Origin: a phage
Assembly (NCBI GenBank): GCA_012813795.1
Contig: GCA_012813795.1_4087.1
Reading direction: 5' to 3' (one strand)
Length of the DNA: 64,000 bases
Shown: positions 4,773 to 41,511 of the stretch, piece after piece
Layout of the letters: the number at the start of each line of letters is the position of its first letter
Numbering within the stretch: the first letter of the stretch is position 1
Notes under the pieces: generated by a model
The model's database searches: none
Seen by the model: only the letters and a program-made list of their open reading frames with translations
Told to the model about the DNA's origin: nothing
Translations under genes and position numbers: made by a program

Positions 4773-4801
4773 ATTCTACGCGAATGATTAATAACTGTCA
4801 A
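4773..4801 (-). promoter_or_regulatory. sigma-70-type promoter
   Basis: TTGACA-N17-TAGAAT on minus strand. Confidence 0.6.
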
Positions 4802-4804
4802 GGA

Positions 4805-5324
4805 CTTTTAATATTGACGGGATTTGAGGAAGGGATTTTTCTTCCCCCCGCTGGGAGGGGAATTTGACGCTGATGGTATCAGAGCTATTGCATTGAAGAT
4901 TACTCTTAATGAGTACGAAAGCGGGTCATCCTGTTTCTCTCTACTTCAGTTTCATATGACGGTCTACACTTTTAAACATAGTGTATCTTCATTAAGTATC
5001 TATGCAATCAAATACTTAATGTGAGTACTCAAATTTTGGACGCAACTTTCCTGTACAAAATTTGATAACTCTCCCTTAGATAATTCGTAAGGTGTTATCC
5101 TTATATGTCTATCTAGGAACCACCAGCCATCCTAACGTGGTTCTTTATAGTGCCGCATTGCCGTGAGGGGTTCATAATATGCCCACATCTGACGGGTTTC
5201 TTCTGCACTTCGCACTGCTGGACTGCTCAACTGCCCTCTACATTTTCGAGTGGATCAGGTTCATGTCATCCATGCCAACAGAATTGTACAATATCATTGT
5301 ATCATGAACATCCATTTTGTCCCA
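4805..5324. ncRNA. ORF-free, hairpin-rich island; candidate large structured RNA (strand unresolved)
   Basis: No ORF longer than 66 codons and none with an SD; several 5-9-bp nested stems; locally GC-richer; only one AGTACT. Confidence 0.3.
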
Positions 5325-5359: not shown

Positions 5360-6322
5360 TTAGAAATCTTCGTATTCGTACCCTTTTTCAAGTACTATTT
5401 TTTTAAGCTTTTGAATAGCTTCACTATATTTTCGGTGCACAGATGAACGGGACTTAACAATGTTTCCTTTATCATCAACATATCCATTATCAGAAATTTC
5501 ACGAAGGGTTTCTGCTTTGTAATCCCCAAGACCATGAACACGCATGATAATTTCTCGTTCTTTAGTACTCAATTCGTCAATGATTTCTGTGATTGCATAA
5601 CGTAATGGATTACAAATGCTATCAACATTAAGGTTATAATCACGAGCAGATGAACTCAGAATATCCCCAAGGGTTCCGTCTGAATCTGAACCCAGTTGTG
5701 CATCAAGAGTCGTATATGCATTCTGGTATAACAAACAGTTCTTAACGTGCTGAAGCTCGATACCAGTACTCTCAGAGATTAATTCTGGTGTTGGTCGCTT
5801 ACCGTGTTCACGTTGATATGATTCATTAAATCGACGTACTTGGATGTTATGAACGCTCATATAACGTGGTAAGTACACCATGTAATTTGCATCTGAACTT
5901 TCATTATACATAGTCATATAAACGGACGTTGTTGCATATGTAATGAATTTGACATTCTTACTAAGATCAAAGGTTTTAAGTGCTCGCATAAAACCTTCTA
6001 CGCCATATGCAATTTTATCTTCAAACGGAATATAACATGTACACTTTGAAGCAACGTCAACAATCATACCATAGTTGTAACGAAGTAATAGGTCAGTATT
6101 CTTTTTTACATTAATCCCAGCACGAATCTCTTCTATGATAGATTCATTAGTTACACCTGCTGGACGTTTAATACTGATATTACTTTTACTACGAACTTTA
6201 TGTGGAATATCATCTTCAATAACTTCTGATGGTTCAATTGCTTCCAATGGATTGACTTCTTCATTCGCAAAACATTCATCCAGTACTTCTTCGGAAATTG
6301 CGTTTAAGTCTAGTTTCTTCAC
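5360..6322 (-). CDS. sigma-70 family RNA polymerase sigma factor (320 aa)
   Basis: Collinear with sigma-70 regions 2-4: FITYATTSVYM..., GKRPTPELISESTGIE, LGSDSDGTLGDIL, STKEREIIMRVHGL, C-terminal HTH. Confidence 0.85.
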   Translation of the reverse strand: MKKLDLNAISEEVLDECFANEEVNPLEAIEPSEVIEDDIPHKVRSKSNISIKRPAGVTNESIIEEIRAGINVKKNTDLLLRYNYGMIVDVASKCTCYIPFEDKIAYGVEGFMRALKTFDLSKNVKFITYATTSVYMTMYNESSDANYMVYLPRYMSVHNIQVRRFNESYQREHGKRPTPELISESTGIELQHVKNCLLYQNAYTTLDAQLGSDSDGTLGDILSSSARDYNLNVDSICNPLRYAITEIIDELSTKEREIIMRVHGLGDYKAETLREISDNGYVDDKGNIVKSRSSVHRKYSEAIQKLKKIVLEKGYEYEDF

Positions 6323-6343
6323 TTACTTCTCCTAATGAAAAAA

Positions 6344-6841
6344 TCAAAATTGGTATACATTAATATTGTCGTCAGTATATTCATCGTGGTTTTTTACCTC
6401 TTTGAAAGTACTGAATATTTTTTGAAGTAGTGTGTCTTGGTTCTCATGCACAGCAGCATCAACCATGTACTCTCCACCACTTCCCATGAAGAATACATAT
6501 TCCTCATGCATGAACTCAAGGTACTTAAAAAACTTCCCGTTCTTTGTTCCTAAGTGAATACAATAATCTTTGGACAACAAGACACAATGGCAGTTCTCTT
6601 TTCTACTGGGCAGTACTATATCACCATATATCAAATACATCAAGACTTTATTGATTTCATTCACTGAACCTGCTGCACTAAACAGACGATCATGAATGTA
6701 TAATGATTTTTGAGTAACTACACCATATTGTTTTTTTGGTTTTAACGGGAATAATCCGAGAAAGTACCTCTCTGTAGAGGTTGTTACTCTTGAATCAGTG
6801 AGCAATAATCCAACACGCTTGTCAACATATACTGTAGTCAT
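6344..6841 (-). CDS. HslV / proteasome-beta-like Ntn-hydrolase (165 aa)
   Basis: N-terminal MTTVYV (Thr nucleophile after Met removal), FSAAGSVNE vs HslV GFAGGTADA, MGSGGEYMVDAA vs HslV IGSGGPYAQAAA. Confidence 0.5.
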   Translation of the reverse strand: MTTVYVDKRVGLLLTDSRVTTSTERYFLGLFPLKPKKQYGVVTQKSLYIHDRLFSAAGSVNEINKVLMYLIYGDIVLPSRKENCHCVLLSKDYCIHLGTKNGKFFKYLEFMHEEYVFFMGSGGEYMVDAAVHENQDTLLQKIFSTFKEVKNHDEYTDDNINVYQF

Positions 6842-14797: not shown

Positions 14798-15254
14798 GAC
14801 CGCTTACCTCATTTTCTTTCAATTTAGAACATACATAGAGAATAGCACCCAATTCGTCACGTGTCAAGTCCTGTAGGTCATATGCCACCTGCATCTGAAA
14901 GTAACTTTCATCACTAAGGTCAGTGAATTGGTCAACATTTTCTACATGCACAAAGAAGTTTTTGGGATCATCATTGTAATGTGAATTATAAGGTCTTATT
15001 GAAAACCCATGACTGTATATATCCAATACGAATTTAGCATTTAAATAGCCCTCTAAATCAAGAGATGCAAGAATCGAATTGGATCTTTCAAAAATGTCCA
15101 TGAAATTATTACGATAAGATCTTGCACAAATCAGTACATCACCGAGTTGGATATCAACTTTCTGTCCAGTCTTGGATTCAGCTAACCCAATGATGTACTC
15201 CATAAACCCAGGAAAATATTTCCTGGATTTAATATCTTTCAGTACTGGACGCAT
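14790..15254 (-). CDS. EEYFQ-motif paralog family member
   Basis: SDESYFQMQVAYDLQDLTRDELGAIL. Confidence 0.6.
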   Translation of the reverse strand: MRPVLKDIKSRKYFPGFMEYIIGLAESKTGQKVDIQLGDVLICARSYRNNFMDIFERSNSILASLDLEGYLNAKFVLDIYSHGFSIRPYNSHYNDDPKNFFVHVENVDQFTDLSDESYFQMQVAYDLQDLTRDELGAILYVCSKLKENEVSGRV

Positions 15255-15700
15255 TACATGTACCTCGCAAAAGAATCAATCTCTTCTGCATCAATCTTAA
15301 TCATATCTTCTGTACTGCTTGTGAAGATGATATGTCCATCAGGTGTAAATTGCAACCTCTGATTGATTGAGTACTGCATATTACATGAATCATATTCACC
15401 CCAGTCAATGACATATGATGCCATTTTGTCATTTGCACCGAAGAACACAACATGAGTAACATCACGCTCTGACAGGCGATCTACCAATGAAGTTCCGTTG
15501 TAAAAATCAGCCTCCGTGTCTTTCTTAAAGACAATAGCAAACTTCTTCAGTACTGATTCAATTGACAAACCATTAGCATAACGATATGCACGTTGCGATT
15601 CATCACCAACATACATGTACAGAATGTCAGTGAACTTGAAGTTTTGAACTTCACAGTTTTCAAATACTAGTTGTACTTCTTCAATGTTACCAAATGCCAT
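15254..15700 (-). CDS. hypothetical protein (148 aa)
   Basis: Start moved to MAFGNIEE (GGAG SD, downstream of promoter 15732..15760). Confidence 0.5.
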   Translation of the reverse strand: MAFGNIEEVQLVFENCEVQNFKFTDILYMYVGDESQRAYRYANGLSIESVLKKFAIVFKKDTEADFYNGTSLVDRLSERDVTHVVFFGANDKMASYVIDWGEYDSCNMQYSINQRLQFTPDGHIIFTSSTEDMIKIDAEEIDSFARYM

Positions 15701-15731
15701 TTTATATCTCCGTGTACTCATATGTAATTCG

Positions 15732-15760
15732 ATTACATATAGAAACAATTTAAATGTCAA
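15732..15760 (-). promoter_or_regulatory. sigma-70-type promoter
   Basis: TTGACA-N17-TGTAAT. Confidence 0.5.
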
Positions 15761-15790
15761 CCCATTCAAATCAGACAGTTATGTGGTCGT

Positions 15791-18688: not shown

Positions 18689-18696
<8 letters not shown>
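18334..18696 (-). CDS. EEYFQ-motif paralog family member
   Basis: YTEESLFQYSMINDIGDLTLEEINAIL. Confidence 0.6.
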
Positions 18697-19465
<769 letters not shown>

Positions 19466-19468
19466 ACA

Positions 19469-19601
<133 letters not shown>

Positions 19602-19602
19602 A

Positions 19603-19702
<100 letters not shown>

Positions 19703-19746
19703 ATAGGCACATACGGGTCTGCTTTTAAGCTACTGATTCGGGAATC

Positions 19747-19792
<46 letters not shown>

Positions 19793-19799
19793 CGTTCTT

Positions 19800-20018
<219 letters not shown>

Positions 20019-20027
20019 TAATACCCT

Positions 20028-20429
20028 TTAGTAGTTTAAGTCAGCGGCGTTGAACACACCGAGTGAAGTCTTACCACGTAGTTTAGGGGAAATGACATAT
20101 TTTGTCAATGTCTTTTTACCGTACCAGTACTCGAAATCTTTTTCTTCTACATACGGATTAGGGAAATCCCATTTGCGTTCTTTATGAATTTGCTTGGCCT
20201 GGACTTGAAGCTTTTCAACTTCATCTGGTGGTACAGTATCTACATTATTAAACTGCATGTACATACCTTTTAACCCATCAAGAATTAATTTTTCAGTTTC
20301 TTTAACTAATGTAATCTTTTCGATTCCAGTACTGATATTCATGTAGTCATCTACATAACCATTCCAGATAACAATCTCTGGATTACCTTCGATTCCCTGA
20401 AGCATCTTGATCAAGTCATTCTTTTTCAT
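20028..20429 (-). CDS. hypothetical protein (133 aa)
   Basis: ORF track; shared N-terminal motif with 19800..20015. Confidence 0.55.
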   Translation of the reverse strand: MKKNDLIKMLQGIEGNPEIVIWNGYVDDYMNISTGIEKITLVKETEKLILDGLKGMYMQFNNVDTVPPDEVEKLQVQAKQIHKERKWDFPNPYVEEKDFEYWYGKKTLTKYVISPKLRGKTSLGVFNAADLNY

Positions 20430-20437
20430 TTGAATTC

Positions 20438-22078
<1,641 letters not shown>

Positions 22079-22094
22079 ATCACCAACTTTAATT

Positions 22095-22240
22095 AAAAAA
22101 ATGGATGGTGACGCTTTTAAACGCCGCTGTTAATTCAGCTTTATAACCACCCGTTTTAACTTGCCTTTCGGCTACCTTGACGTGGGGCGTACAGGCTACT
22201 AAAAGCAACTTCTGTAAACATATTTCCACGCCTTACCATT
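22095..22240 (-). ncRNA. structured RNA 2, related to 20811..20885
   Basis: Extended -10 promoter (CTGATATAAT at 22244..22252), no ORF, GCC-GAAA-GGC hairpin, GCTG-AATTAA-CAGC hairpin, closing stem followed by T7. Confidence 0.4.
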
Positions 22241-22263
22241 TTCATTATATCAGTACTTTTATC

Positions 22264-22503
22264 TTATACTTTAGTTAGTACTAAGTTGTTGATGTTGTTT
22301 ACATCTGGACAGACGTCGGTGCGATGCATCAATTCAATATCAAGAATGTATTGTTTGATTTTTGAAATGTCAATGTCTTTTTCTTGCATTACGATGATAC
22401 ATGACTCATTTAAAGTATATGTATCATAAGACCATCCCATTCCATCACCACGTGGAACTTTTTGTGATACATTATAACTATAACTCACAAAATACTTACC
22501 CAT
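22264..22503 (-). CDS. hypothetical protein (79 aa)
   Basis: Start moved to MGKYFVS, downstream of the promoter 22536..22563 start site. Confidence 0.5.
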   Translation of the reverse strand: MGKYFVSYSYNVSQKVPRGDGMGWSYDTYTLNESCIIVMQEKDIDISKIKQYILDIELMHRTDVCPDVNNINNLVLTKV

Positions 22504-22531
22504 TTCAATATACCTTCTGTTGTTAAGATAC

Positions 22532-23385
<854 letters not shown>

Positions 23386-23570: not shown

Positions 23571-23574
<4 letters not shown>

Positions 23575-24074
23575 TTACGTTGCATCCAATGTGAGCCAGT
23601 CCATACTTTTTTCTTTTCACGTTCTATCTGTCGTTTTTTTAATTCTTCATCCCACAGGATATTGTCATTCAAGAAATAGTCATATAGTTCTTTTAATTTC
23701 AAATTATCAGAAAATGCGGGAAAGTACTTATTATCGCATACCAAGCTCTCTTGGAAATGTGCATCTTCATCTGTGATGTATCGATATGTAAAAATTCTAT
23801 TCGGGTTTGGATAGATACCATTTGTTTCAGAGAAACATTTTCTAAGTAGACTTTTACCAAAATCACAGATAATAGTGTCTTTACGAACAAAATTCCAGCG
23901 AGTAACCATTGTAATTGTTAGAGTTTGATAATTCTGATCTAAGCTTATTCGATGTTCACCATCTTTGTGCTTATAGTGATAAGTGCCCTGTTTTCGAACT
24001 GTTCGTTCAAACTCATTAATATTAATTTTACTTAAAATTTCAGTAATACTTTCCGGTACATGCGTAATGAGCAT
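23571..24074 (-). CDS. EEYFQ-motif paralog family member (divergent, 167 aa)
   Basis: ITDEDAHFQESLVCDN. Confidence 0.5.

Positions 24075-30868: not shown

Positions 30869-30884
<16 letters not shown>
30429..30884 (-). CDS. EEYFQ-motif paralog family member
   Basis: NNLEEMYFQQLTIQEDFGMIGLQELEMI. Confidence 0.6.
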
Positions 30885-32257
<1,373 letters not shown>

Positions 32258-32272
32258 TTGTGCCTCTGATGG

Positions 32273-34171
32273 TTAAAAGAATATATCACGTAGTAAATGT
32301 TCTATAACAGGTGCTGTCCAGCCATTACCAAGCATTTTGTACGCTTGTGTTGAACTACTAACTTTGAAGTAGTTTACATCAATTCCTTGCAACATGCAAC
32401 ACTCTTGTACTGTTAAATGACGATAGTCCACATTTCGTTTACCCTTCTCAATCAGGAAGTTCCTGTTGATATCAGGGTCTTTGAAAACGATTTGTCTTCT
32501 TGACTTATTGAAGTACTGATTCGGATCTCCACCCTTGAAGTAGTTTGCGTCAATGCAATATGATTTATCACGATCAGTATACCAATTACCAGTTAGTATA
32601 TCTTGTAATTTTGGTGCTAAAATAAGAGGTTTTGGAATAAACAACTTATCCGAGCTATACCAGTAGTAACGTTGGCGATAATGTGCTGTATAATTTTGTG
32701 AATTTATCAAAATTGGTGTCATTTCCAACACGCCATTGATATAATCCTTGAAATCTTCCTTCATCTTAACATTCTCAAAAAGAACTTTCAAGTTAGGATT
32801 GAGACTTTTTATGTGCTGGTAAATATCAACCATTGTATGGAATAACATACCACGAGGATCATTCACACCGCCTTGTTTCCCAGCAACTGACCACGCTTGG
32901 CAGTTATGAACTACAATATTGTTCGCCGTATATGTGTTATCTACTGCAACTTCAATATTGTAAACGGTTTTCCATTCTCCGGTTGTGGTGTTCGATTTAA
33001 CACCTTTTACCCATGAATATGACCCATCATCATAGAATGCTTCATCTTTTCGGTGCTTTTCTTTTTTGTATGTTAATACGTAATACGGCTTCTGATTAAC
33101 AACACGTTCTTCTATAACTTTTGTTTCAGACGGTTTAAAGTATGTTATGTTAGAATGACGACCATACACATTCATAATTAGTTGTTGTATACCAAGAATA
33201 ACATTCTTTGATGTTGATGTAAATTTTAAACAATCATCTTTCTTGTCATGGTGACCATCTGCGTCAAAATAACCATCAATGAATGCTTTCTGATTAGCGA
33301 TACTTTCAGTGAAAAGTGTGGGGTGTACTTGTTTATTTGAAGCACCCTTACCCATTTGTTCACAAAATTCAACTAGTTCTTTTGAACAAATATAGAATTT
33401 ATAAGATGTTCTTTCTTTAACAAAATTATATTTCATATTCATACCATCAAAACATGAAACCAATTCATCAAATTCATCATGAGCACAGCAAATAAAAACA
33501 CGATATTGATAACTATTTTTTCTATTTTGTCGTTTTACTTTGTAAGTCCATCCATCACCCATAAATCTACCCATGAAATACCAAAAGCTTTCACTCTTGT
33601 TATGTTGAAAATTCACATTACAACGAACATTACATATAGCATGTTCTTCTGTGAGTTCATGTGCATCGATCCATGTAGGTTCTGTATATTCACGAACATA
33701 TTGTCGTTTTTCATTATCCCACTTCTTGCTCATTTTTCTCGCATAAAATGGATGATTATCAGTGCATTCAATTGGTATATGTCCCTGACCTGTGATGATT
33801 CTTGTTGGTGCAATCTTGCTACCAATACTCAATACTTTTTGGTATTGTCCAGTGTGTGTAAGAACCATATCACCAATTTTTATATCTTTTATATCTTTAT
33901 GACCTTCATTTGTCATGATCATGGTTCCTGCTGGGAAGCAAGGAAAACCACCCATCAGAAGATCTATCTTGTCCCATTCGATATCCCATTCTTTCCATCT
34001 AGTTACATCACCCAATTGGATGATATCAGGAAAGTTAGCCTGGGATTCAGCTATAGCAAATTTATCAATTTCAGATGAGTAGTACTTTTCAACTGGTATT
34101 CCTGCACTTTGCAAGGCCATATACCCAACACTCATCCCATTGAATAGTGATAGTACACGTATCGGTTCCAT
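32273..34171 (-). CDS. C5-cytosine DNA methyltransferase precursor carrying an intein
   Basis: Motif I LSLFNGMSVG; motif IV split as GGFP|C...HN|CQAWSVAGKQ; ENV motif FENVKM; C-terminal QECCMLQG...GNGW. Confidence 0.85.
   Translation of the reverse strand: MEPIRVLSLFNGMSVGYMALQSAGIPVEKYYSSEIDKFAIAESQANFPDIIQLGDVTRWKEWDIEWDKIDLLMGGFPCFPAGTMIMTNEGHKDIKDIKIGDMVLTHTGQYQKVLSIGSKIAPTRIITGQGHIPIECTDNHPFYARKMSKKWDNEKRQYVREYTEPTWIDAHELTEEHAICNVRCNVNFQHNKSESFWYFMGRFMGDGWTYKVKRQNRKNSYQYRVFICCAHDEFDELVSCFDGMNMKYNFVKERTSYKFYICSKELVEFCEQMGKGASNKQVHPTLFTESIANQKAFIDGYFDADGHHDKKDDCLKFTSTSKNVILGIQQLIMNVYGRHSNITYFKPSETKVIEERVVNQKPYYVLTYKKEKHRKDEAFYDDGSYSWVKGVKSNTTTGEWKTVYNIEVAVDNTYTANNIVVHNCQAWSVAGKQGGVNDPRGMLFHTMVDIYQHIKSLNPNLKVLFENVKMKEDFKDYINGVLEMTPILINSQNYTAHYRQRYYWYSSDKLFIPKPLILAPKLQDILTGNWYTDRDKSYCIDANYFKGGDPNQYFNKSRRQIVFKDPDINRNFLIEKGKRNVDYRHLTVQECCMLQGIDVNYFKVSSSTQAYKMLGNGWTAPVIEHLLRDIFF
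32903..33940 (-). mobile_element. 346-aa intein with LAGLIDADG homing-endonuclease domain, inserted at the catalytic Cys of motif IV
   Basis: N-terminal block CFPAGTMIMT, block B CTDNHPF, LAGLIDADG motifs FMGRFMGDGW and FIDGYFDADGHH, C-terminal VVHN followed by Cys+1; no AGTACT in 1038 bp. Confidence 0.8.
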
Positions 34172-34442: not shown

Positions 34443-34471
34443 ATTATATCTCCTAATTTAGAAATCGTCAA
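34443..34471 (-). promoter_or_regulatory. sigma-70-type promoter
   Basis: TTGACG-N17-TATAAT-GTTTGT. Confidence 0.6.
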
Positions 34472-34709
34472 TACTTTTTTCTTGACACCATCGGGCAGTA
34501 CAGATGATTGCCGATGCAAGGATTGAAGCACTAGCACGACCACCGCCTAATATGTACTGACTGACCACACCAATCATATTGAACACTTTATCACTCTCGG
34601 ACAGTTGTTCAAAATCCTTTTTCCAAAATTCATATTCTTCGTCTGAAACTTCAAATTCACTACCCATATCATTTAAAATCTTTTTTAGTACTGCACTATG
34701 TTCACTCAT
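34458..34709 (-). CDS. hypothetical protein (83 aa)
   Basis: Start moved to MSEHSAVLKK. Confidence 0.5.
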   Translation of the reverse strand: MSEHSAVLKKILNDMGSEFEVSDEEYEFWKKDFEQLSESDKVFNMIGVVSQYILGGGRASASILASAIICTARWCQEKSIDDF

Positions 34710-34785
34710 CTTTATCACCATAACGTTCGTCGTAGTAATCATCATCACGGTCTAATGGTTCTTTTGGTTTTTCGCTCATATTTCC

Positions 34786-35046
34786 TCACATGGTAAACGT
34801 GTTATCACCATCCATGTCTTCATCAGTTGCTTCTGCTAAGGTCTTGATAGTTAATAATCCACGCTTCACATACAACATGAAAACCTTTTCATAATTACCA
34901 AACATGATTTCCGGTGACATGTAATTTTCTGTTACAATGACAATTGGTCGCCCCTGTGTCAGCATACGAAACATAGTGCGATATTTGTCAAATGTACGGA
35001 ATTCATCCATGTTCATCATGTGGCGTTTACGAACTACTGTAGTCAC
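34786..35046 (-). CDS. hypothetical protein (86 aa)
   Basis: ORF track. Confidence 0.5.
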   Translation of the reverse strand: MTTVVRKRHMMNMDEFRTFDKYRTMFRMLTQGRPIVIVTENYMSPEIMFGNYEKVFMLYVKRGLLTIKTLAEATDEDMDGDNTFTM

Positions 35047-35050
35047 TGTG

Positions 35051-35473
35051 TTACCCTTTCAATTGTTTCTCGATATGGAATGTATTGTATATCTTGTTGT
35101 ACACAGTGTCAATAATTTTCTTAACGTCTGCTAACTCTTCGACAGTTGTGCACACATCACTGATAGTACTTAACTGAAACAACTCTTCTTCAGTACTGTA
35201 CAGTGTTATATCAAATTTGTTGCGAAGTTCATCTTCGATAACGTATTGATTTGTGACAGTATATGATGCAATTTCAACATCCAACAACTTATCACCTTCA
35301 AAAACATTATAAATGAACACAAATGTTAGTTCTTCACTCTCATCATCACTGTAGCTTATATATACATTGTAATTTTCACCATGAAAATCAAGATTGTGCT
35401 CAAACCTATTATCAGGTACTAGTGAATCTATAGGCATTCCCTTTAACAAATCAAAACAATCTCTTGGGTTCAT
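35051..35473 (-). CDS. EEYFQ-motif paralog family member
   Basis: YSTEEELFQLSTISDV. Confidence 0.6.
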   Translation of the reverse strand: MNPRDCFDLLKGMPIDSLVPDNRFEHNLDFHGENYNVYISYSDDESEELTFVFIYNVFEGDKLLDVEIASYTVTNQYVIEDELRNKFDITLYSTEEELFQLSTISDVCTTVEELADVKKIIDTVYNKIYNTFHIEKQLKG

Positions 35474-35910
35474 TTTACATCCATTTGTCGCTGTTCATCA
35501 ATAAAAAAGATGTTAAAGATAGCTGAACGCATTTTTGTTAGCGTACTCATGAGATATTTTAAATCCTTGAAATCAATATTAAATGTTTGAACCAGTGATT
35601 CCTGGAAATACCCCTCTTCAGTAGTGCATTCACTTACATTTTGTACCTGATATATTTTGATAATATTATCATCACGAAGCATAATTTCTAAGTTATTGTT
35701 ATTAACATTGTGCACGATATACATCTGATCACCATATACCAGATTATTAACTGATAATGATAATACATTATTTTCAATAATAATCTTAAAGCAATTCTGA
35801 CCTACGTATGTGGTATTTTTAATTTGTTCTTCAGGATCAGTCAAACCATCGTTGATAAATTTAATTTTATTAAAAGTACTGATATATTTTTTAACTAATT
35901 TAATGTTCAT
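35470..35910 (-). CDS. EEYFQ-motif paralog family member
   Basis: CTTEEGYFQESLVQTF. Confidence 0.6.
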   Translation of the reverse strand: MNIKLVKKYISTFNKIKFINDGLTDPEEQIKNTTYVGQNCFKIIIENNVLSLSVNNLVYGDQMYIVHNVNNNNLEIMLRDDNIIKIYQVQNVSECTTEEGYFQESLVQTFNIDFKDLKYLMSTLTKMRSAIFNIFFIDEQRQMDVK

Positions 35911-36287
35911 TGCTTTACCTTAGATAGAGCATAATTCATTATTGACTTGATTTTTTGTAAATTGTCATATGACATTACATGTTTTTCAATTAATGATAGT
36001 TGAAATAATTCTTCTTCAGTTGAATTCAAGTAAACTTCTGAACCATCATAATTTTCAAAATCATAAAGGTATGAAAGACGGTCATCTATATACCAACCAA
36101 TCCATTCAATGGTGTTTCTTTCTTTGAAAACACAAGTATATGGATTATCTCTTGAATCTAAGGTTATGGTTAAACGTAAACATGAATTTGATTGTTGTAC
36201 ACTCTGTCTCCCATAATATACAGTAACCTCATCGGTTTCAATTGATTTATACAAAGCATCAATTTTTCTATCCAATTCATCTACCAT
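35907..36287 (-). CDS. EEYFQ-motif paralog family member
   Basis: NSTEEELFQLSLIEKH. Confidence 0.6.
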   Translation of the reverse strand: MVDELDRKIDALYKSIETDEVTVYYGRQSVQQSNSCLRLTITLDSRDNPYTCVFKERNTIEWIGWYIDDRLSYLYDFENYDGSEVYLNSTEEELFQLSLIEKHVMSYDNLQKIKSIMNYALSKVKQ

Positions 36288-36691
36288 AATCTTACCCTTT
36301 TCAATGCTTTAACTTCGTCAGTGCACGGGAACACAACGAATCCAGTTAATGTTAGACCATCAAAATGGTTGAATCCATAATCATGAATCTTAGTTGCAGT
36401 GAATCCTTCAGCTTTCACTTTATCGAATAGATTAAGCATCTGTTCTTCAGATTTAGCCTTTAAGATAATCTTGCGGCGACCGTCCTGTACCCAAGTACTG
36501 AAATCGTTCAGGATCTTTTCATCTTCATCTCTTGGGTTCTCACCAACAGCATTACAACCACGAATTGATGTACCAGCAACTGTAACCGTGGACCAGATAG
36601 AATCAACCGCATGACCCGCCTGAGCAGCAAGCTTCCCAACTGGCATATCTAAGTCTTCACGAATGATTATGTAACATTTACTTACTGTCAT
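36281..36691 (-). CDS. peptidyl-tRNA hydrolase, PTH2 family (136 aa)
   Basis: YIIIREDLDMPVGKLAAQAGHA and C-terminal HDYGFNHFDGLTLTGFVVFP match the PTH2 pattern. Confidence 0.7.
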   Translation of the reverse strand: MTVSKCYIIIREDLDMPVGKLAAQAGHAVDSIWSTVTVAGTSIRGCNAVGENPRDEDEKILNDFSTWVQDGRRKIILKAKSEEQMLNLFDKVKAEGFTATKIHDYGFNHFDGLTLTGFVVFPCTDEVKALKRVRLW

Positions 36692-37103
36692 CTACAATCT
36701 CCTTTTCATATTGCTCAAGTATCGAATAGATCTTATTGGAAATGTCCAATGTTTTAACATAATCACAGTACCTGATACACCCAAAATCATACAAAGTACT
36801 AACCATAAAGAATTCTTCTTCAGAGTACTTCTTTTCATTGAATGTAATGGTATTTGTAATTTTTCCAGATTCTGAATATTTTACATAGATAATACTACCA
36901 TTACTTATGTAATCTAATGTCTCTGAATACTTTTCAATACTAGAACTATGTCTAAATTGAATTCCTACAGATTTATCATACCAAAGAGATTTATTTCCGT
37001 CAGTAAGTATAGCATAATCAATCTTACGTTTATCATTGACACACATACCACAATCGGTAATTTTTAGTTTAGTGATATCAATATTCAACAGATCACTTAT
37101 CAT
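36678..37103 (-). CDS. EEYFQ-motif paralog family member
   Basis: KYSEEEFFMVSTLYDF. Confidence 0.55.
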   Translation of the reverse strand: MISDLLNIDITKLKITDCGMCVNDKRKIDYAILTDGNKSLWYDKSVGIQFRHSSSIEKYSETLDYISNGSIIYVKYSESGKITNTITFNEKKYSEEEFFMVSTLYDFGCIRYCDYVKTLDISNKIYSILEQYEKEIVDDSK

Positions 37104-37527
37104 CCAATTCTCCGAATTTGGTTAGAGCAAACACTTTTGCCTCATCATGCAGTTTGTGAATTAGTATGATATTATCATATGTTAAATCTAGTACATTGTC
37201 AACAAGTGAACGTTGAAATAGTATCTCTTCAGATGTGATTTCATGGATGTTTTCTATCTTAATTTCATTGAATGTATCAGTTTCATTTTCTCGCGTACTC
37301 ATGATCAACGTACCACTCGTTGAAATGTATGATATCTTGGTATCCACACCATCAATGGTTGCGTACAGGCGAATTATTTCATATGAATCAGTTAATCTTA
37401 CATTAACCTTAATTTCATCCTCTGTACAAAACCACACACTTTTAGCAAAGAAATTGACACGTACTTTCATATCTTTAAGTTTATTATTTTGGAAATATTT
37501 TAGTACTTTTTTGAATGATATAATCAT
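37093..37527 (-). CDS. EEYFQ-motif paralog family member
   Basis: ITSEEILFQRSLVDNVLDLTYDNI. Confidence 0.6.
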   Translation of the reverse strand: MIISFKKVLKYFQNNKLKDMKVRVNFFAKSVWFCTEDEIKVNVRLTDSYEIIRLYATIDGVDTKISYISTSGTLIMSTRENETDTFNEIKIENIHEITSEEILFQRSLVDNVLDLTYDNIILIHKLHDEAKVFALTKFGELDDK

Positions 37528-37544
37528 ATGTATCTCCTTTAGTA

Positions 37545-37940
37545 CTATATCGCATAGTACTTAAATAATGTTTTTAGATCATCAATAGTGAATGGTAAAT
37601 CCTCCAAAAGCAACTGTTGAAAGTAATGCTCTTCGTCAAGATACTTATGTATATTGATGAATGATTTTCTATGATAATCCGCTTTCCATGTAGGTCTTGT
37701 ACCCTTAGTATATTCAGTGAATACAATTTTGTCCATACCATAATCATACACGAATTCATTCTTTTCTGCAACCCCCTGATACTTTAGTTTTACCGGTTCT
37801 TTGCTGATAGAAAATTTATGCTCAGATGATTCATAATAGAATGATGATTGCTGATATTTTGATAAATCAATCTTTGAAAAATCATTTAGATAATAAGAAA
37901 GTTTAATTGTGACGATGCTGCCTATTCGACGACCCAACAT
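37545..37940 (-). CDS. EEYFQ-motif paralog family member
   Basis: LDEEHYFQQLLLEDLPFTIDDL. Confidence 0.6.
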   Translation of the reverse strand: MLGRRIGSIVTIKLSYYLNDFSKIDLSKYQQSSFYYESSEHKFSISKEPVKLKYQGVAEKNEFVYDYGMDKIVFTEYTKGTRPTWKADYHRKSFINIHKYLDEEHYFQQLLLEDLPFTIDDLKTLFKYYAI

Positions 37941-37955
37941 ACTTTTATCCTAATA

Positions 37956-37980
37956 TAAAAAATGCCCCTGGGAGGGGCAG
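37956..37980 (-). terminator. rho-independent terminator
   Basis: GCCCCT-CCC-AGGGGC followed by T6. Confidence 0.75.
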
Positions 37981-38089
37981 TACGAAAAGATATAAAATGT
38001 ACAATAAGAAATGGAAAATATAATAAATTAATTTTATTATAGAAGGGAGGAAAAATAACATAATAATATGTTAGCCATTACTGGCATAA

Positions 38090-38641
38090 TTATTTATCAT
38101 TAAGCTCTTTTAATTTAGTCTGAACATCTAGTGTTAATTTTCTTAGTTTCTTAAAGACAAAAGCACTGTCATCTAGTTCAAGTTTCATACCATGTGTAAT
38201 GGCATAAAGAACTTCAGCTTTAGCCAAATCATGACGCATCCAATTACCATTCTTATAGAGAGTCATTACACAAAAAGGGCAAACACTTTCAGATGTTTGA
38301 TGACCAATAAAAACGGATTGTATCGTATCATGTTGGAAATTAATAAATGACTCGTTAATTTTTTGAATTTCTGCAATTACATCAAGTTTAGCATCCGTAT
38401 TAATAGCAAAAATATTGTTCCCGTTGTCATCAGTATTGATGTTTAGCTCTATATCAGAACCTATTTTGCGTACTGCCATTGTATAAAGCAATAACTCATA
38501 CATGTCATATGACGTTACATCACCGCTTGGTGCAGTAACGTTAAGGTTAACACCGTGATGTGTAACTTCAGTACTGAATCCTTCTTTATCTGCTAGGAAA
38601 TTTACAATTTGGTTCGTGAATTTTTGAATTTGTTCGATCAT
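38090..38641 (-). CDS. hypothetical protein (183 aa)
   Basis: ORF track. Confidence 0.6.
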   Translation of the reverse strand: MIEQIQKFTNQIVNFLADKEGFSTEVTHHGVNLNVTAPSGDVTSYDMYELLLYTMAVRKIGSDIELNINTDDNGNNIFAINTDAKLDVIAEIQKINESFINFQHDTIQSVFIGHQTSESVCPFCVMTLYKNGNWMRHDLAKAEVLYAITHGMKLELDDSAFVFKKLRKLTLDVQTKLKELNDK

Positions 38642-38718
38642 ATTAAGTACTCCTTTACTTTGTCTTATTTAACAAATGAATATAAGGCTCCCGATTGAGA
38701 GCCTTATTTCTTTTTATA

Positions 38719-39156
38719 TTATGCGGTTTCTTCTTCGAACTTAGCGACGATATCAACCATTTCATTGATTAGTTTGATATGGTCATAAGTTACTGAACGG
38801 AAATCTACAACAAGTGACTGTTGGAAGAATTCTTCTTCTGGCAACCCACCATCAAAGTTGAGATCAACATTCTCATCATCATTAGTTGGTGCAACCTTGA
38901 TGTTGAAACTATTTTCATCAACAACCAGTTTAACTACACAACCCAAGCAGATAGATAGTACATATGCTGGTTTCTTAGCTGCTTCTTTACGGAAAGGTGC
39001 ACGAAGAGCACATACTACGCTACTAATTTCATCACCTTCTTCTTTATATTTGACGGTAATCATTAGCTCTTCAACTTTAATCGCTTCAATTACACGAGAA
39101 GGGTTTTCTGCGAAGAATGGGTTGTTACGGATTACTTGTTCAAGATTCATATTCAT
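38719..39156 (-). CDS. EEYFQ-motif paralog family member
   Basis: LPEEEFFQQSLVVDFRSVTYDHIKLI. Confidence 0.6.
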   Translation of the reverse strand: MNMNLEQVIRNNPFFAENPSRVIEAIKVEELMITVKYKEEGDEISSVVCALRAPFRKEAAKKPAYVLSICLGCVVKLVVDENSFNIKVAPTNDDENVDLNFDGGLPEEEFFQQSLVVDFRSVTYDHIKLINEMVDIVAKFEEETA

Positions 39157-39347: not shown

Positions 39348-39679
39348 AAAACCTTCACATCACTACGTTTATTTCGTGCGTCTTTCTTTTCCTCATCAGT
39401 TCGTGTATCATCTAATTGTAACACAACTTCTTTAAGAATGTCAACATCAATTTCAGCTTCTACGTAATGAAAGTCATTGCGACCAAAAACATACTTCACT
39501 GCAACCCATACACGCTTGTACCATTTAAGAAAAGGATTCAAACGCATACTGACTGTACATTGACCAAGTTTATCATCACCGTGTTCTTCTGTCAAGTCAA
39601 ATTGTGCAATGTGAACACAATGTTCATTTTTATCACCACAAGTACAACGCAACATAAACTCTTTGCTATCTTTACTCAT
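39344..39679 (-). CDS. hypothetical protein (111 aa)
   Basis: ORF track. Confidence 0.5.
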   Translation of the reverse strand: MSKDSKEFMLRCTCGDKNEHCVHIAQFDLTEEHGDDKLGQCTVSMRLNPFLKWYKRVWVAVKYVFGRNDFHYVEAEIDVDILKEVVLQLDDTRTDEEKKDARNKRSDVKVL

Positions 39680-40098
39680 ACTGGATATGCCTTTTCAAAC
39701 GATTTCAGAACACCAAACTTAGCAGCATCGTAATCAAATTGATAACTCAATTCACGATTTTCATTCATACGATATACCATATGAAAGTTTGGATAACCAA
39801 TTCTAACAGGTTTATTAGAATTAGCAAGGAGAATTGCCCATTCTTTTACAGGGAACACATTTTCCTGTAACATTTTAAGATTACGTTCAAAGTACTTCAT
39901 AGCTTGTGTGCCAATCTTGTATTCTTGTTCAGTAATCTCATCAATCTCTACACTTTTGGATTCTAAATCAAAAACCCAATTGTTATCTTCGTAGTATAAA
40001 TCTTTTACATCATCGATGGTATATGAATCTGGAAGATCATAAAAAATCCACGCTGATGCCCCTGAACTGGTAATGATACGAATTTTATAATACTTCAT
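39676..40098 (-). CDS. hypothetical protein (140 aa)
   Basis: Start moved to MKYYKIRI. Confidence 0.5.
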   Translation of the reverse strand: MKYYKIRIITSSGASAWIFYDLPDSYTIDDVKDLYYEDNNWVFDLESKSVEIDEITEQEYKIGTQAMKYFERNLKMLQENVFPVKEWAILLANSNKPVRIGYPNFHMVYRMNENRELSYQFDYDAAKFGVLKSFEKAYPV

Positions 40099-40261
40099 CA
40101 CGATCCTCATTACTGTTAATGTAATAGTAACAGACAATACAGTGTATTACCAATAAAATTAGTTCTATGATGTTAAGCATAACCACATGTGATTGTGGGA
40201 ACACCAGAGCCAATATCAACATTATAGTTGGAATGACGAATATTGTCAACTCTTTTTTCAT
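40085..40261 (-). CDS. possible 58-aa two-TM membrane protein
   Basis: My translation gives MKKELTIFVIPTIMLILALVF...; below track cutoff. Confidence 0.4.
   Translation of the reverse strand: MKKELTIFVIPTIMLILALVFPQSHVVMLNIIELILLVIHCIVCYYYINSNEDRDEVL
40221..40249 (-). promoter_or_regulatory. sigma-70-type promoter internal to the small membrane ORF
   Basis: TTGACA-N17-TATAAT. Confidence 0.55.
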
Positions 40262-40748: not shown

Positions 40749-41024
40749 TCAGTTGAACCCCCATAAATGTGCAAATGAACTGTCATTTCTAACCAATTCT
40801 TTTGCATACGAACTAATTGCATTCACAACCATAATATTAACACAATTCAACTCATGAAGAACAAGTTCATTACCACATAATGAACAAGATGTACTATAAA
40901 ATGGTGTTGGTAATTTTATATAGCCACCTCTTAATGGAAAGACTTGTTCCTCTATTGTCAACATTGTATCAGACGGAGTGACAAACATCTCACATTCAAG
41001 ACAACAAATTTTCACTTTATCCAT
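40749..41024 (-). CDS. zinc-ribbon protein (91 aa)
   Basis: CCLECE...CSLCGNE. Confidence 0.5.
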   Translation of the reverse strand: MDKVKICCLECEMFVTPSDTMLTIEEQVFPLRGGYIKLPTPFYSTSCSLCGNELVLHELNCVNIMVVNAISSYAKELVRNDSSFAHLWGFN

Positions 41025-41511
41025 TATTCATCTCCTTCAGTACAGTTCTGATATCCTCAAAGGTCTGAACAAACCAGCGGTGTTCATCACTAACATCAAT
41101 GATCTTACCACTATACAAATAATAATGCTCAAACTTCAGAGTACTTTTACGCAATCGTTCAGCAAGTTCAGGATTCTGCATTATTTTAGCACATATCGCA
41201 TCCTGGATTACATTTAATCGCTCAGGTGTCATCTCTATACGGTCATGCATATATGTGTTTGCAGCGGCTTTCGCTGCGGCTCCTGACACCTTTCTAAGTT
41301 CTTCATGCTGTTGTCCAGTGAGGAACCAGAAATAAAAAGACTCAACCGAAGGAAACCATCCATATGGTTCTAGTGTAAAGCTATGGGGAGAAAAATTAGA
41401 TAAATCTCTCCCTAGCTTAGTTTTCCCTTTACTGTAGATATTGATATGCGTGTATCCATCTTCAGTACAGTCAATGTAGTTTTTTGGTTGTTCATCAGGA
41501 AATTCAAACAT
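41017..41511 (-). CDS. possible NADAR (YbiA/DUF1768)-like protein (164 aa)
   Basis: LSNFSPHSFTLEPYGWFPSVESFYFW and AKIMQNPELAERL resemble NADAR core motifs as I remember them. Confidence 0.35.
   Translation of the reverse strand: MFEFPDEQPKNYIDCTEDGYTHINIYSKGKTKLGRDLSNFSPHSFTLEPYGWFPSVESFYFWFLTGQQHEELRKVSGAAAKAAANTYMHDRIEMTPERLNVIQDAICAKIMQNPELAERLRKSTLKFEHYYLYSGKIIDVSDEHRWFVQTFEDIRTVLKEMNNG

Follow-up and report, generated by a model that had tools for sequence, protein, structure and literature searches.

A peptidyl-tRNA hydrolase gene and a hypervariable EEYFQ-family array that lie together but are separable in evolution in RaK2-like jumbo phages

Does a peptidyl-tRNA hydrolase gene lying inside a phage gene array tell us what the array does? 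We considered this question for positions 35051-39156 of a 64,000-nucleotide stretch of phage DNA (contig GCA_012813795.1_4087.1, assembly GCA_012813795.1; hereafter the window), where a gene for a Pth2-type enzyme lies among open reading frames (ORFs) for small proteins that share an EEYFQ motif. In the original prediction, co-transcription of the family with the hydrolase gene (pth2) was taken as a hint that the array acts on translation or on defences that target tRNA or the ribosome. This is unsupported: the array occurs without Pth2 in phages 121Q and JNE01, and Pth2 occurs without any family member in four distant phage contigs from IMG/VR (L017-L020). Array and Pth2 are separable in evolution, each being found without the other, and we favour, with moderate confidence, an explanation in which two distinct things lie side by side, a tRNA-recycling accessory Pth2 and a hypervariable array of diversified binding proteins, adjacent through shared collinear descent.

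Escherichia phage A4, a RaK2-like jumbo phage (genus Asteriusvirus, 355 kb), matches the window at 99.1% identity over this interval, and its ten equivalent genes are labelled as nine hypothetical proteins and one 'peptidyl-tRNA hydrolase'. The G+C content is ~33-36% throughout the region, and its real genes lie without exception on the minus strand, as do all the features of the region described below. The eight ORFs originally named, seven for the family and one for the hydrolase, were recovered with exact coordinates, as were the overlaps of pth2 with its two neighbours, 14 nucleotides at 36678-36691 and 7 nucleotides at 36281-36287. An AAGGAG Shine-Dalgarno sequence lies 7 nucleotides ahead of the Pth2 ATG.

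Distribution of the array and Pth2 among related phages

The family profile was run against 16 distinct genomes or contigs of the RaK2 clade. In 14 of the 16 loci a family gene touches or overlaps the start of pth2; in the remaining two the ortholog sits ~330 nucleotides upstream. The gene upstream of pth2 is orthologous within each of three subclades. Orthologs of window gene 36678..37103 hold this place in RaK2, L026 and L027, whereas among Munch-like phages the place is taken by another paralog, orthologous to window 23571-24074. Between 2 and 11 family copies surround pth2 per locus (6-12 kb). The placement of Pth2 within the array is thus conserved outside the genus, but most Asteriusviruses do not have Pth2 at all. 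A tblastn search with Pth2 gave matches in 42 phage records, mostly of RaK2, GAP32, CBB, Munch, Yen9 and XacN1-type jumbo phages, and many of these already carry the label peptidyl-tRNA hydrolase. No Pth2 homolog was found in ~35 Escherichia Asteriusvirus genomes of the same database (including 121Q, PBECO4, phAPEC6, slurp01 and JNE01), all of which carry the neighbour gene 41017-41511 at 78-81% identity; just A4 and EJP2 scored among Escherichia phages. Gene 41017-41511 is itself the most conserved of the block, with 83% identity in RaK2. In phages Turkey3 and Turkey5 its annotation reads 'NADAR domain-containing protein'; our search gave no Pfam match at E<0.001.

The two Pth2-less loci that we examined, those of 121Q and JNE01, are collinear gene for gene with the window from 43.0 to 29.5 kb. 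In 121Q, the orthologs of the genes that flank pth2, 36678-37103 (121Q 5657-6061) and 35907-36287 (121Q 6063-6440), directly abut, with zero Pth2 remnant between them. Pth2 is accessory within the genus Asteriusvirus. These two flanking genes are also the only ones of the window's 18 family members that adjoin pth2, and pth2 shares its embedded position between family members with three more unrelated genes (38090-38641, 30869-31324 and 15254-15769). The overlaps on both sides had been read as translational coupling. Overlap is the rule in this genome, however: of 39 neighbouring gene pairs in the corresponding 20 kb of A4, 19 overlap, so that the 'translational coupling' of pth2 is no more than the default.

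The EEYFQ family and its hypervariable cassette

The seven ORFs do form one real family, as judged by a hidden Markov model (HMM), profile searches and a common motif, even though pairwise BLAST among them is weak (E 4e-4 to >1) and confined to the C-terminal ~40 residues. At E<1e-3 the HMM built from the seven added 8 ORFs of the window, and further rounds extended the family to 18 members between 173 and 39156. We define the family as single-domain proteins of 64-193 amino acids with a profile E<1e-3 and a C-terminal [ST]EEx[YF]FQxS[LT][IVL]xD helix, which takes in all seven listed ORFs and a further 11 of the window. To the left of the window, the 29.5 kb of A4 sequence add just one member. 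A search for related loci with the family profile, in which confirmation rests on a single sequence, confirmed 3. When 1.84 billion representative proteins, clustered at 50% identity, were searched exhaustively with the profile, 142 representative clusters emerged, all of 64-193 amino acids; of the 161 family proteins retrieved, 150 contain the motif in its loose form. Two neighbouring ORFs tried as divergent members, 38090-38641 (hhalign probability 0.2 against the family profile) and 39676-40137, were both rejected by hhalign. None of the 142 members matches Pfam, searches of family members against NCBIfam and PDB sequences gave no match, nine proteins searched against the defence and anti-defence families of PADLOC-DB gave none at E up to 0.1, and we found no description of the family in the literature. 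The median isoelectric point (pI) is 4.67 for the family and 5.63 for the other ORFs; two members are basic. The phAPEC6 orthologs gp127c-132c are not among the 62 virion proteins detected by mass spectrometry, and the RaK2 and 121Q orthologs carry no structural label. EEYFQ proteins are thus mostly acidic and are no virion components in the available proteomes.

The array is hypervariable. In three pairwise comparisons (window/A4, 121Q and JNE01) its proteins are 24-44% identical, compared to 60-95% for the flanking proteins. By blastn, DNA similarity to 121Q is missing from 37958 to 35216 and returns at 74-80% identity in the flanks, delimiting a hypervariable cassette of ~2.7 kb (35216..37958) that holds six family genes and pth2. 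The last of these genes (35051..35473) is included only partly, its 3' ~165 nucleotides aligning with 121Q. Compared to RaK2, family orthologs are 26-48% identical, Pth2 is 60% identical and the flanks have a median of ~52%. The array is among the fastest-diverging parts of these genomes.

This variability is unevenly spread over the predicted fold. AlphaFold2, run with a 142-sequence alignment, modelled the 144-residue protein of 37093..37527 (pLDDT 94.2, pTM 0.87) as a helix (residues 4-14), seven strands (21-91), a helix that carries the motif (100-109) and a final helix (117-142), and predicted an identical α-β7-α-α topology for 36678..37103 (pLDDT 86.7), the 141-residue member directly upstream of pth2. 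Information per position reaches 3.0 bits in the motif helix but 0.4-0.8 bits in the strands, which are hypervariable and rich in insertions and deletions. In the 142 sequences, F104 is kept in 141, E100 in 137, Q105 in 135 and S107 in 131. A constant helix combined with variable sheets is what one would expect of proteins engaged in host interaction or counter-defence. In BFVD a fold search hit only proteins from this same clade of phages, all uncharacterised. Foldseek gave no significant match in the PDB; the best hits were p32 homologs (1yqf, 6szw, 3rpx and 1p32; E 0.12-0.5, TM ~0.3).

The near-continuous run of seven members that was described needs one qualification. The seventh, 38719..39156, matches the family HMM and is conserved (72% identity to 121Q gp80 and 48% to RaK2 ORF184), and so diverges from 121Q at the rate of the conserved flanks. 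It is cut off from the others by the non-family gene 38090..38641 and by two terminator-like hairpins. One hairpin lies directly 3' of the seventh member (38707-38682); the other, a GC hairpin with a T-run at 37963..37979, forms the upstream edge of the cassette, next to the point at 37958 where DNA similarity to 121Q ends. The gene between them encodes 183 amino acids, matches PHROG 15745 (E=2e-76) and is 70% identical in 121Q and 52% in RaK2. A further terminator-like hairpin (34220-34193) follows two small conserved ORFs of 86 and 96 amino acids at 34458..35046, which are 92-95% and 64-74% identical to those of 121Q and JNE01; it is the protein of 34786-35046 that keeps 92-95% identity among Asteriusvirus lineages. 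The minus-strand hairpins suggest one putative transcription unit from 37940 to 34458, comprising six family genes, pth2 and the two small ORFs, and suggest that 38719-39156 belongs to a separate unit from the six-gene array. A scan for sigma-70 promoters did no better than shuffled sequence (45 matches, 44.6 expected), and an Rfam scan of the intergenic gaps from 33.5 to 40.5 kb found no RNA element.

Within the putative unit the first family gene, 37545..37940 (131 amino acids), has an ortholog in 121Q (4794-5189, 29% identity), and we found none in RaK2 or JNE01. It is followed by the two modelled members and by pth2 (36281..36691). Directly downstream of pth2 is 35907..36287 (126 amino acids, assigned by the family HMM), then 35470..35910 (146 amino acids), whose orthologs in 121Q, JNE01 and RaK2 are 25-28% identical, and the array's last member, 35051..35473 (140 amino acids, pI 4.2), also assigned by the family HMM. 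Beyond the small ORFs lies a C5 DNA cytosine methyltransferase gene (32273-34171), which is split at the catalytic GGFP|C by an intein of ~345 amino acids (approximately 32906-33940) that includes a homing endonuclease of the LAGLIDADG type (Pfam Hint_2, LAGLIDADG_3). A4 and JNE01 share this intein; the methyltransferases of 121Q, phAPEC6, RaK2 and GAP32 lack it and have 286-297 amino acids.

Pth2 and its association with tRNA genes

The predicted identity of 36281..36691 as a PTH2-type hydrolase of 136 amino acids, annotated as such in A4 (A4_114), stands up to profile search. The protein matches PF01981 with E=2.6e-18 and 66.7 bits, compared to a gathering cutoff of 23, and the match spans residues 5-126 of the protein and positions 2-103 of the 115 in the profile. 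Against the sequences of the archaeal Pth2 crystal structures the best hit was PDB 2zv3 (E=3e-13). The motifs GK(20)...Q..H (GK..AQ..HA) and D104-Y-G (D-x-G) are conserved and invariant among phage homologs; in the alignment K20 and D104 fall at the archaeal GK and D-A-G positions, and neither varies among five phage orthologs. Work by Fromant and colleagues from 2005 is said to place the Pth2 active site at Lys18, Asp86 and Thr90 (S. solfataricus numbering). The position of the Thr is an invariant Asn108 across the phage clade.

Pth2 genes of RaK2-like jumbo phages have been reviewed (PMC7824862), and phage Pth2 is discussed in papers on RaK2, on CBB and on jumbo-phage comparisons. The enzyme is already annotated and published in these phages, so its presence here adds little, and we consider the array more interesting than the Pth2 gene. 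We found no experiments on any phage Pth2 in the literature. A second 'peptidyl-tRNA hydrolase' annotated in Salmonella phage Munch, CPT_Munch_385 (L004 3270-4109), is a misannotation of an SPFH/Band 7 protein (PF01145, E=2e-28), and no ortholog of it was found in the window.

In some other phages Pth2 keeps company with tRNA genes. In the Mimasvirus type, pth2 stands between an upstream tRNA-Thr(tgt) and a tRNA-Leu(tag) that comes directly after it. Among the four distant contigs without the family, L017-L019 carry pth2 within a cluster of 7 tRNAs per 10 kb, and in L020 there is one tRNA. It is tRNA genes, and not the EEYFQ family, that phage Pth2 has as its conserved partner in evolution, which favours a tRNA-recycling role over a role tied to the family. 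All four of these contigs also encode a tRNA whose anticodon, CTA, would decode the amber stop codon. Mimasvirus-type phages further encode an R2K-clade ATP-grasp (RimK-like) protein ~2-3 kb upstream of pth2 (GAP32_376 at L003 3251-3988; L028 1776-2567), of which we found no ortholog in the window. As for the window itself, the two nearby tRNA clusters that were thought to fit a translation theme are real in so far as five tRNA genes lie at 19131-23260, but these are 13-17 kb from the array. One tRNA-Ser (20972-21063, minus strand) has the unusual anticodon ACT according to ARAGORN, and Munch has a counterpart with the same anticodon (L004 396-486).

Two adjacent elements, alternative readings and known systems

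In the explanation that we favour, Pth2 would be part of the translation-support toolkit of RaK2-like jumbo phages, beside tRNA genes. Judging from its family membership, its substrate is most likely peptidyl-tRNA or N-blocked aminoacyl-tRNA that accumulates during infection; by cleaving the ester bond it would free the tRNA for reuse without help from host Pth1. Archaeal Pth2 can replace E. coli Pth, and limiting Pth blocks the growth of λ. Candidate sources of substrate are ordinary drop-off, toxin-acetylated aminoacyl-tRNA and ribosomes stalled after tRNA cleavage, the last of these having been proposed in PMC7824862. The gene is accessory, having been cleanly lost from most Asteriusviruses. 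The family members would be non-enzymatic binding proteins in which the constant helix serves folding, oligomerisation or docking, and the variable β-sheets with their insertions and deletions may recognise fast-changing targets, the array evolving by an arms race or by module exchange. The adjacency of pth2 and array would then reflect the shared descent of a collinear accessory block.

Several observations weigh against this explanation. Pth2 misses the NCBIfam equivalog cutoffs of NF003314 (64.9 against 126) and TIGR00283 (62.7 against 82), so that under NCBI criteria it would rank as a member of the family yet as no equivalog of the archaeal enzyme. It has an insertion of 20-25 amino acids after helix 1 relative to archaeal enzymes, and Asn108 replaces the archaeal Thr within the D-A-G-x-T motif. 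Its hydrolase activity is predicted from family membership, and the binding role of the EEYFQ proteins is likewise predicted, from sequence and structural models. On the genomic side, the pairing of pth2 with an upstream family gene across three subclades could reflect selection and not mere inheritance. Two family genes also stand next to tRNA genes in the window: 18689-19114 adjoins tRNA-Thr(tgt) at 19131-19204, and 23571-24074 is next to tRNA-Ser(tga) at 23171-23260.

These genomic observations bear most directly on the idea that EEYFQ proteins and Pth2 work as a single module, directed at translation or against defences that attack tRNA or the ribosome; acidic proteins might, for example, decoy or inhibit anticodon nucleases or aminoacyl-tRNA-modifying toxins while Pth2 clears damaged or blocked tRNAs. 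The overlapping family-pth2 order in 14 of 16 RaK2-clade loci, with different paralogs by subclade, and the position of family arrays beside tRNA genes would both agree with such a module, as would the closest fold analogues, p32, Mam33 and mt-SAF19/25, which are tied to mitoribosome biogenesis. However, 121Q and JNE01 retain the array with no Pth2 anywhere in their genomes, PBECO4, phAPEC6 and some 30 other Asteriusviruses also do without Pth2, distant phages have Pth2 without the family, and only 2 of the 18 window members adjoin pth2. Other unrelated genes are equally embedded in the arrays, gene overlap is the norm of the genome, and the resemblance to the p32 fold is not statistically significant. 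What ties the EEYFQ family to translation is neighbourhood alone, and we regard a single module as distinctly improbable. A different kind of alternative, which we consider possible although unlikely, is that recombination swaps whole modules between related phages with no in-place diversification under selection, and that Pth2 entered or left the A4 lineage within a swapped module. The edges of similarity to 121Q are sharp, at 37958 (right after the terminator hairpin) and at 35216, with 74-80% identity beyond them, and the difference in cassette length (2.74 and 2.40 kb) is approximately the size of pth2. Positional orthology of the array genes is nevertheless kept among the window, 121Q, JNE01 and RaK2, and no sampled donor has a cassette close to that of the window, the best non-identical Pth2 relatives being 59-73% identical. 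Such swapping overlaps with the explanation that we favour and does not exclude it.

The remaining alternatives concern the family proteins. They could be a phage-specific radiation of p32/MAM33-like acidic oligomers whose invariant helix oligomerises or docks to a hub and whose β-sheets act as decoys or sponges against host factors, by mimicking nucleic acid or tRNA or by binding basic proteins; their targets could include defences directed at tRNA or the ribosome. If true, this would explain why arrays lie repeatedly beside pth2 and tRNA genes, and it would represent a new, structurally distinct counter-defence class with dozens of specificities per genome. We think it rather unlikely. The element order of p32 is described as α-β7-α-α, and a sequence link to p32 was ruled out: hhalign of the family profile against 1p32 gave a probability of 0.06 and none of the 142 members matches PF02330. 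The 'p32-like topology' of the models is a lead rather than evidence of membership. We also considered whether the motif itself, ExxYFQ|S, could be a site for a TEV/3C-type protease, the family then being substrates or precursors of a phage or host protease. Indeed [ST]EEx[YF]FQxS resembles ENLYFQ|S, the cleavage site of TEV. In both AlphaFold models, however, the motif forms a packed α-helix (residues 100-109 and 95-104) with pLDDT >90 and no extended accessible linker, F104 is the same in 141 of 142 sequences, which fits a core residue, and the P1' residue is variable. We rejected a cleavage site because of the packed helix, and give this interpretation almost no credence.

Returning to the two adjacent but distinct elements, the locus offers a contrast within one genus, A4-type phages with pth2 and 121Q/PBECO4-type phages without it in an otherwise collinear block, which makes the role of a phage Pth2 directly testable. 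The array family, with its confident models and invariant helix, provides reasonable candidates for host-interaction or counter-defence screens.

The elements of the locus can be compared to known systems. The phage Pth2 resembles archaeal and eukaryotic Pth2 (2zv3 from M. jannaschii, 1wn2 from P. horikoshii, 1xty from S. solfataricus and human Bit1, 1q7s) in its full-length profile match, its single domain and its GK..AQ..HA and D-x-G motifs, whereas it differs in its length, 136 compared to about 115-120 amino acids, and in belonging to a phage whose host uses Pth1. It is orthologous to the Pth2 genes of RaK2-like phages (RaK2 ORF188, GAP32_382, CBB_392 and A4_114), with 99% identity to A4, 60% to RaK2 and 40-51% to GAP32, CBB and Munch, and occupies the same block of the genome as they do, with the C5 DNA methyltransferase gene downstream. 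Unlike in those phages, Pth2 within Asteriusvirus is the exception, and whereas Mimasvirus-type pth2 is flanked by tRNA genes, the window gene lies 13 kb from the nearest tRNA. The α-β7-α-α element order predicted for EEYFQ proteins is the one described for p32/gC1qBP/Mam33 (MAM33, PF02330), but the structural match is not significant. The p32 proteins form doughnut-shaped homotrimers with an acidic face; most EEYFQ members are acidic, and the models made of them are of monomers. Each array member also matches a PHROG (phrog_30548, 36084, 30841, 24510, 24941, 33313, 23322 and 13866), and cross-matches connect these groups; PHROGs splits the family into many small groups with no assigned function, whereas here a single profile, motif and predicted fold unite it.

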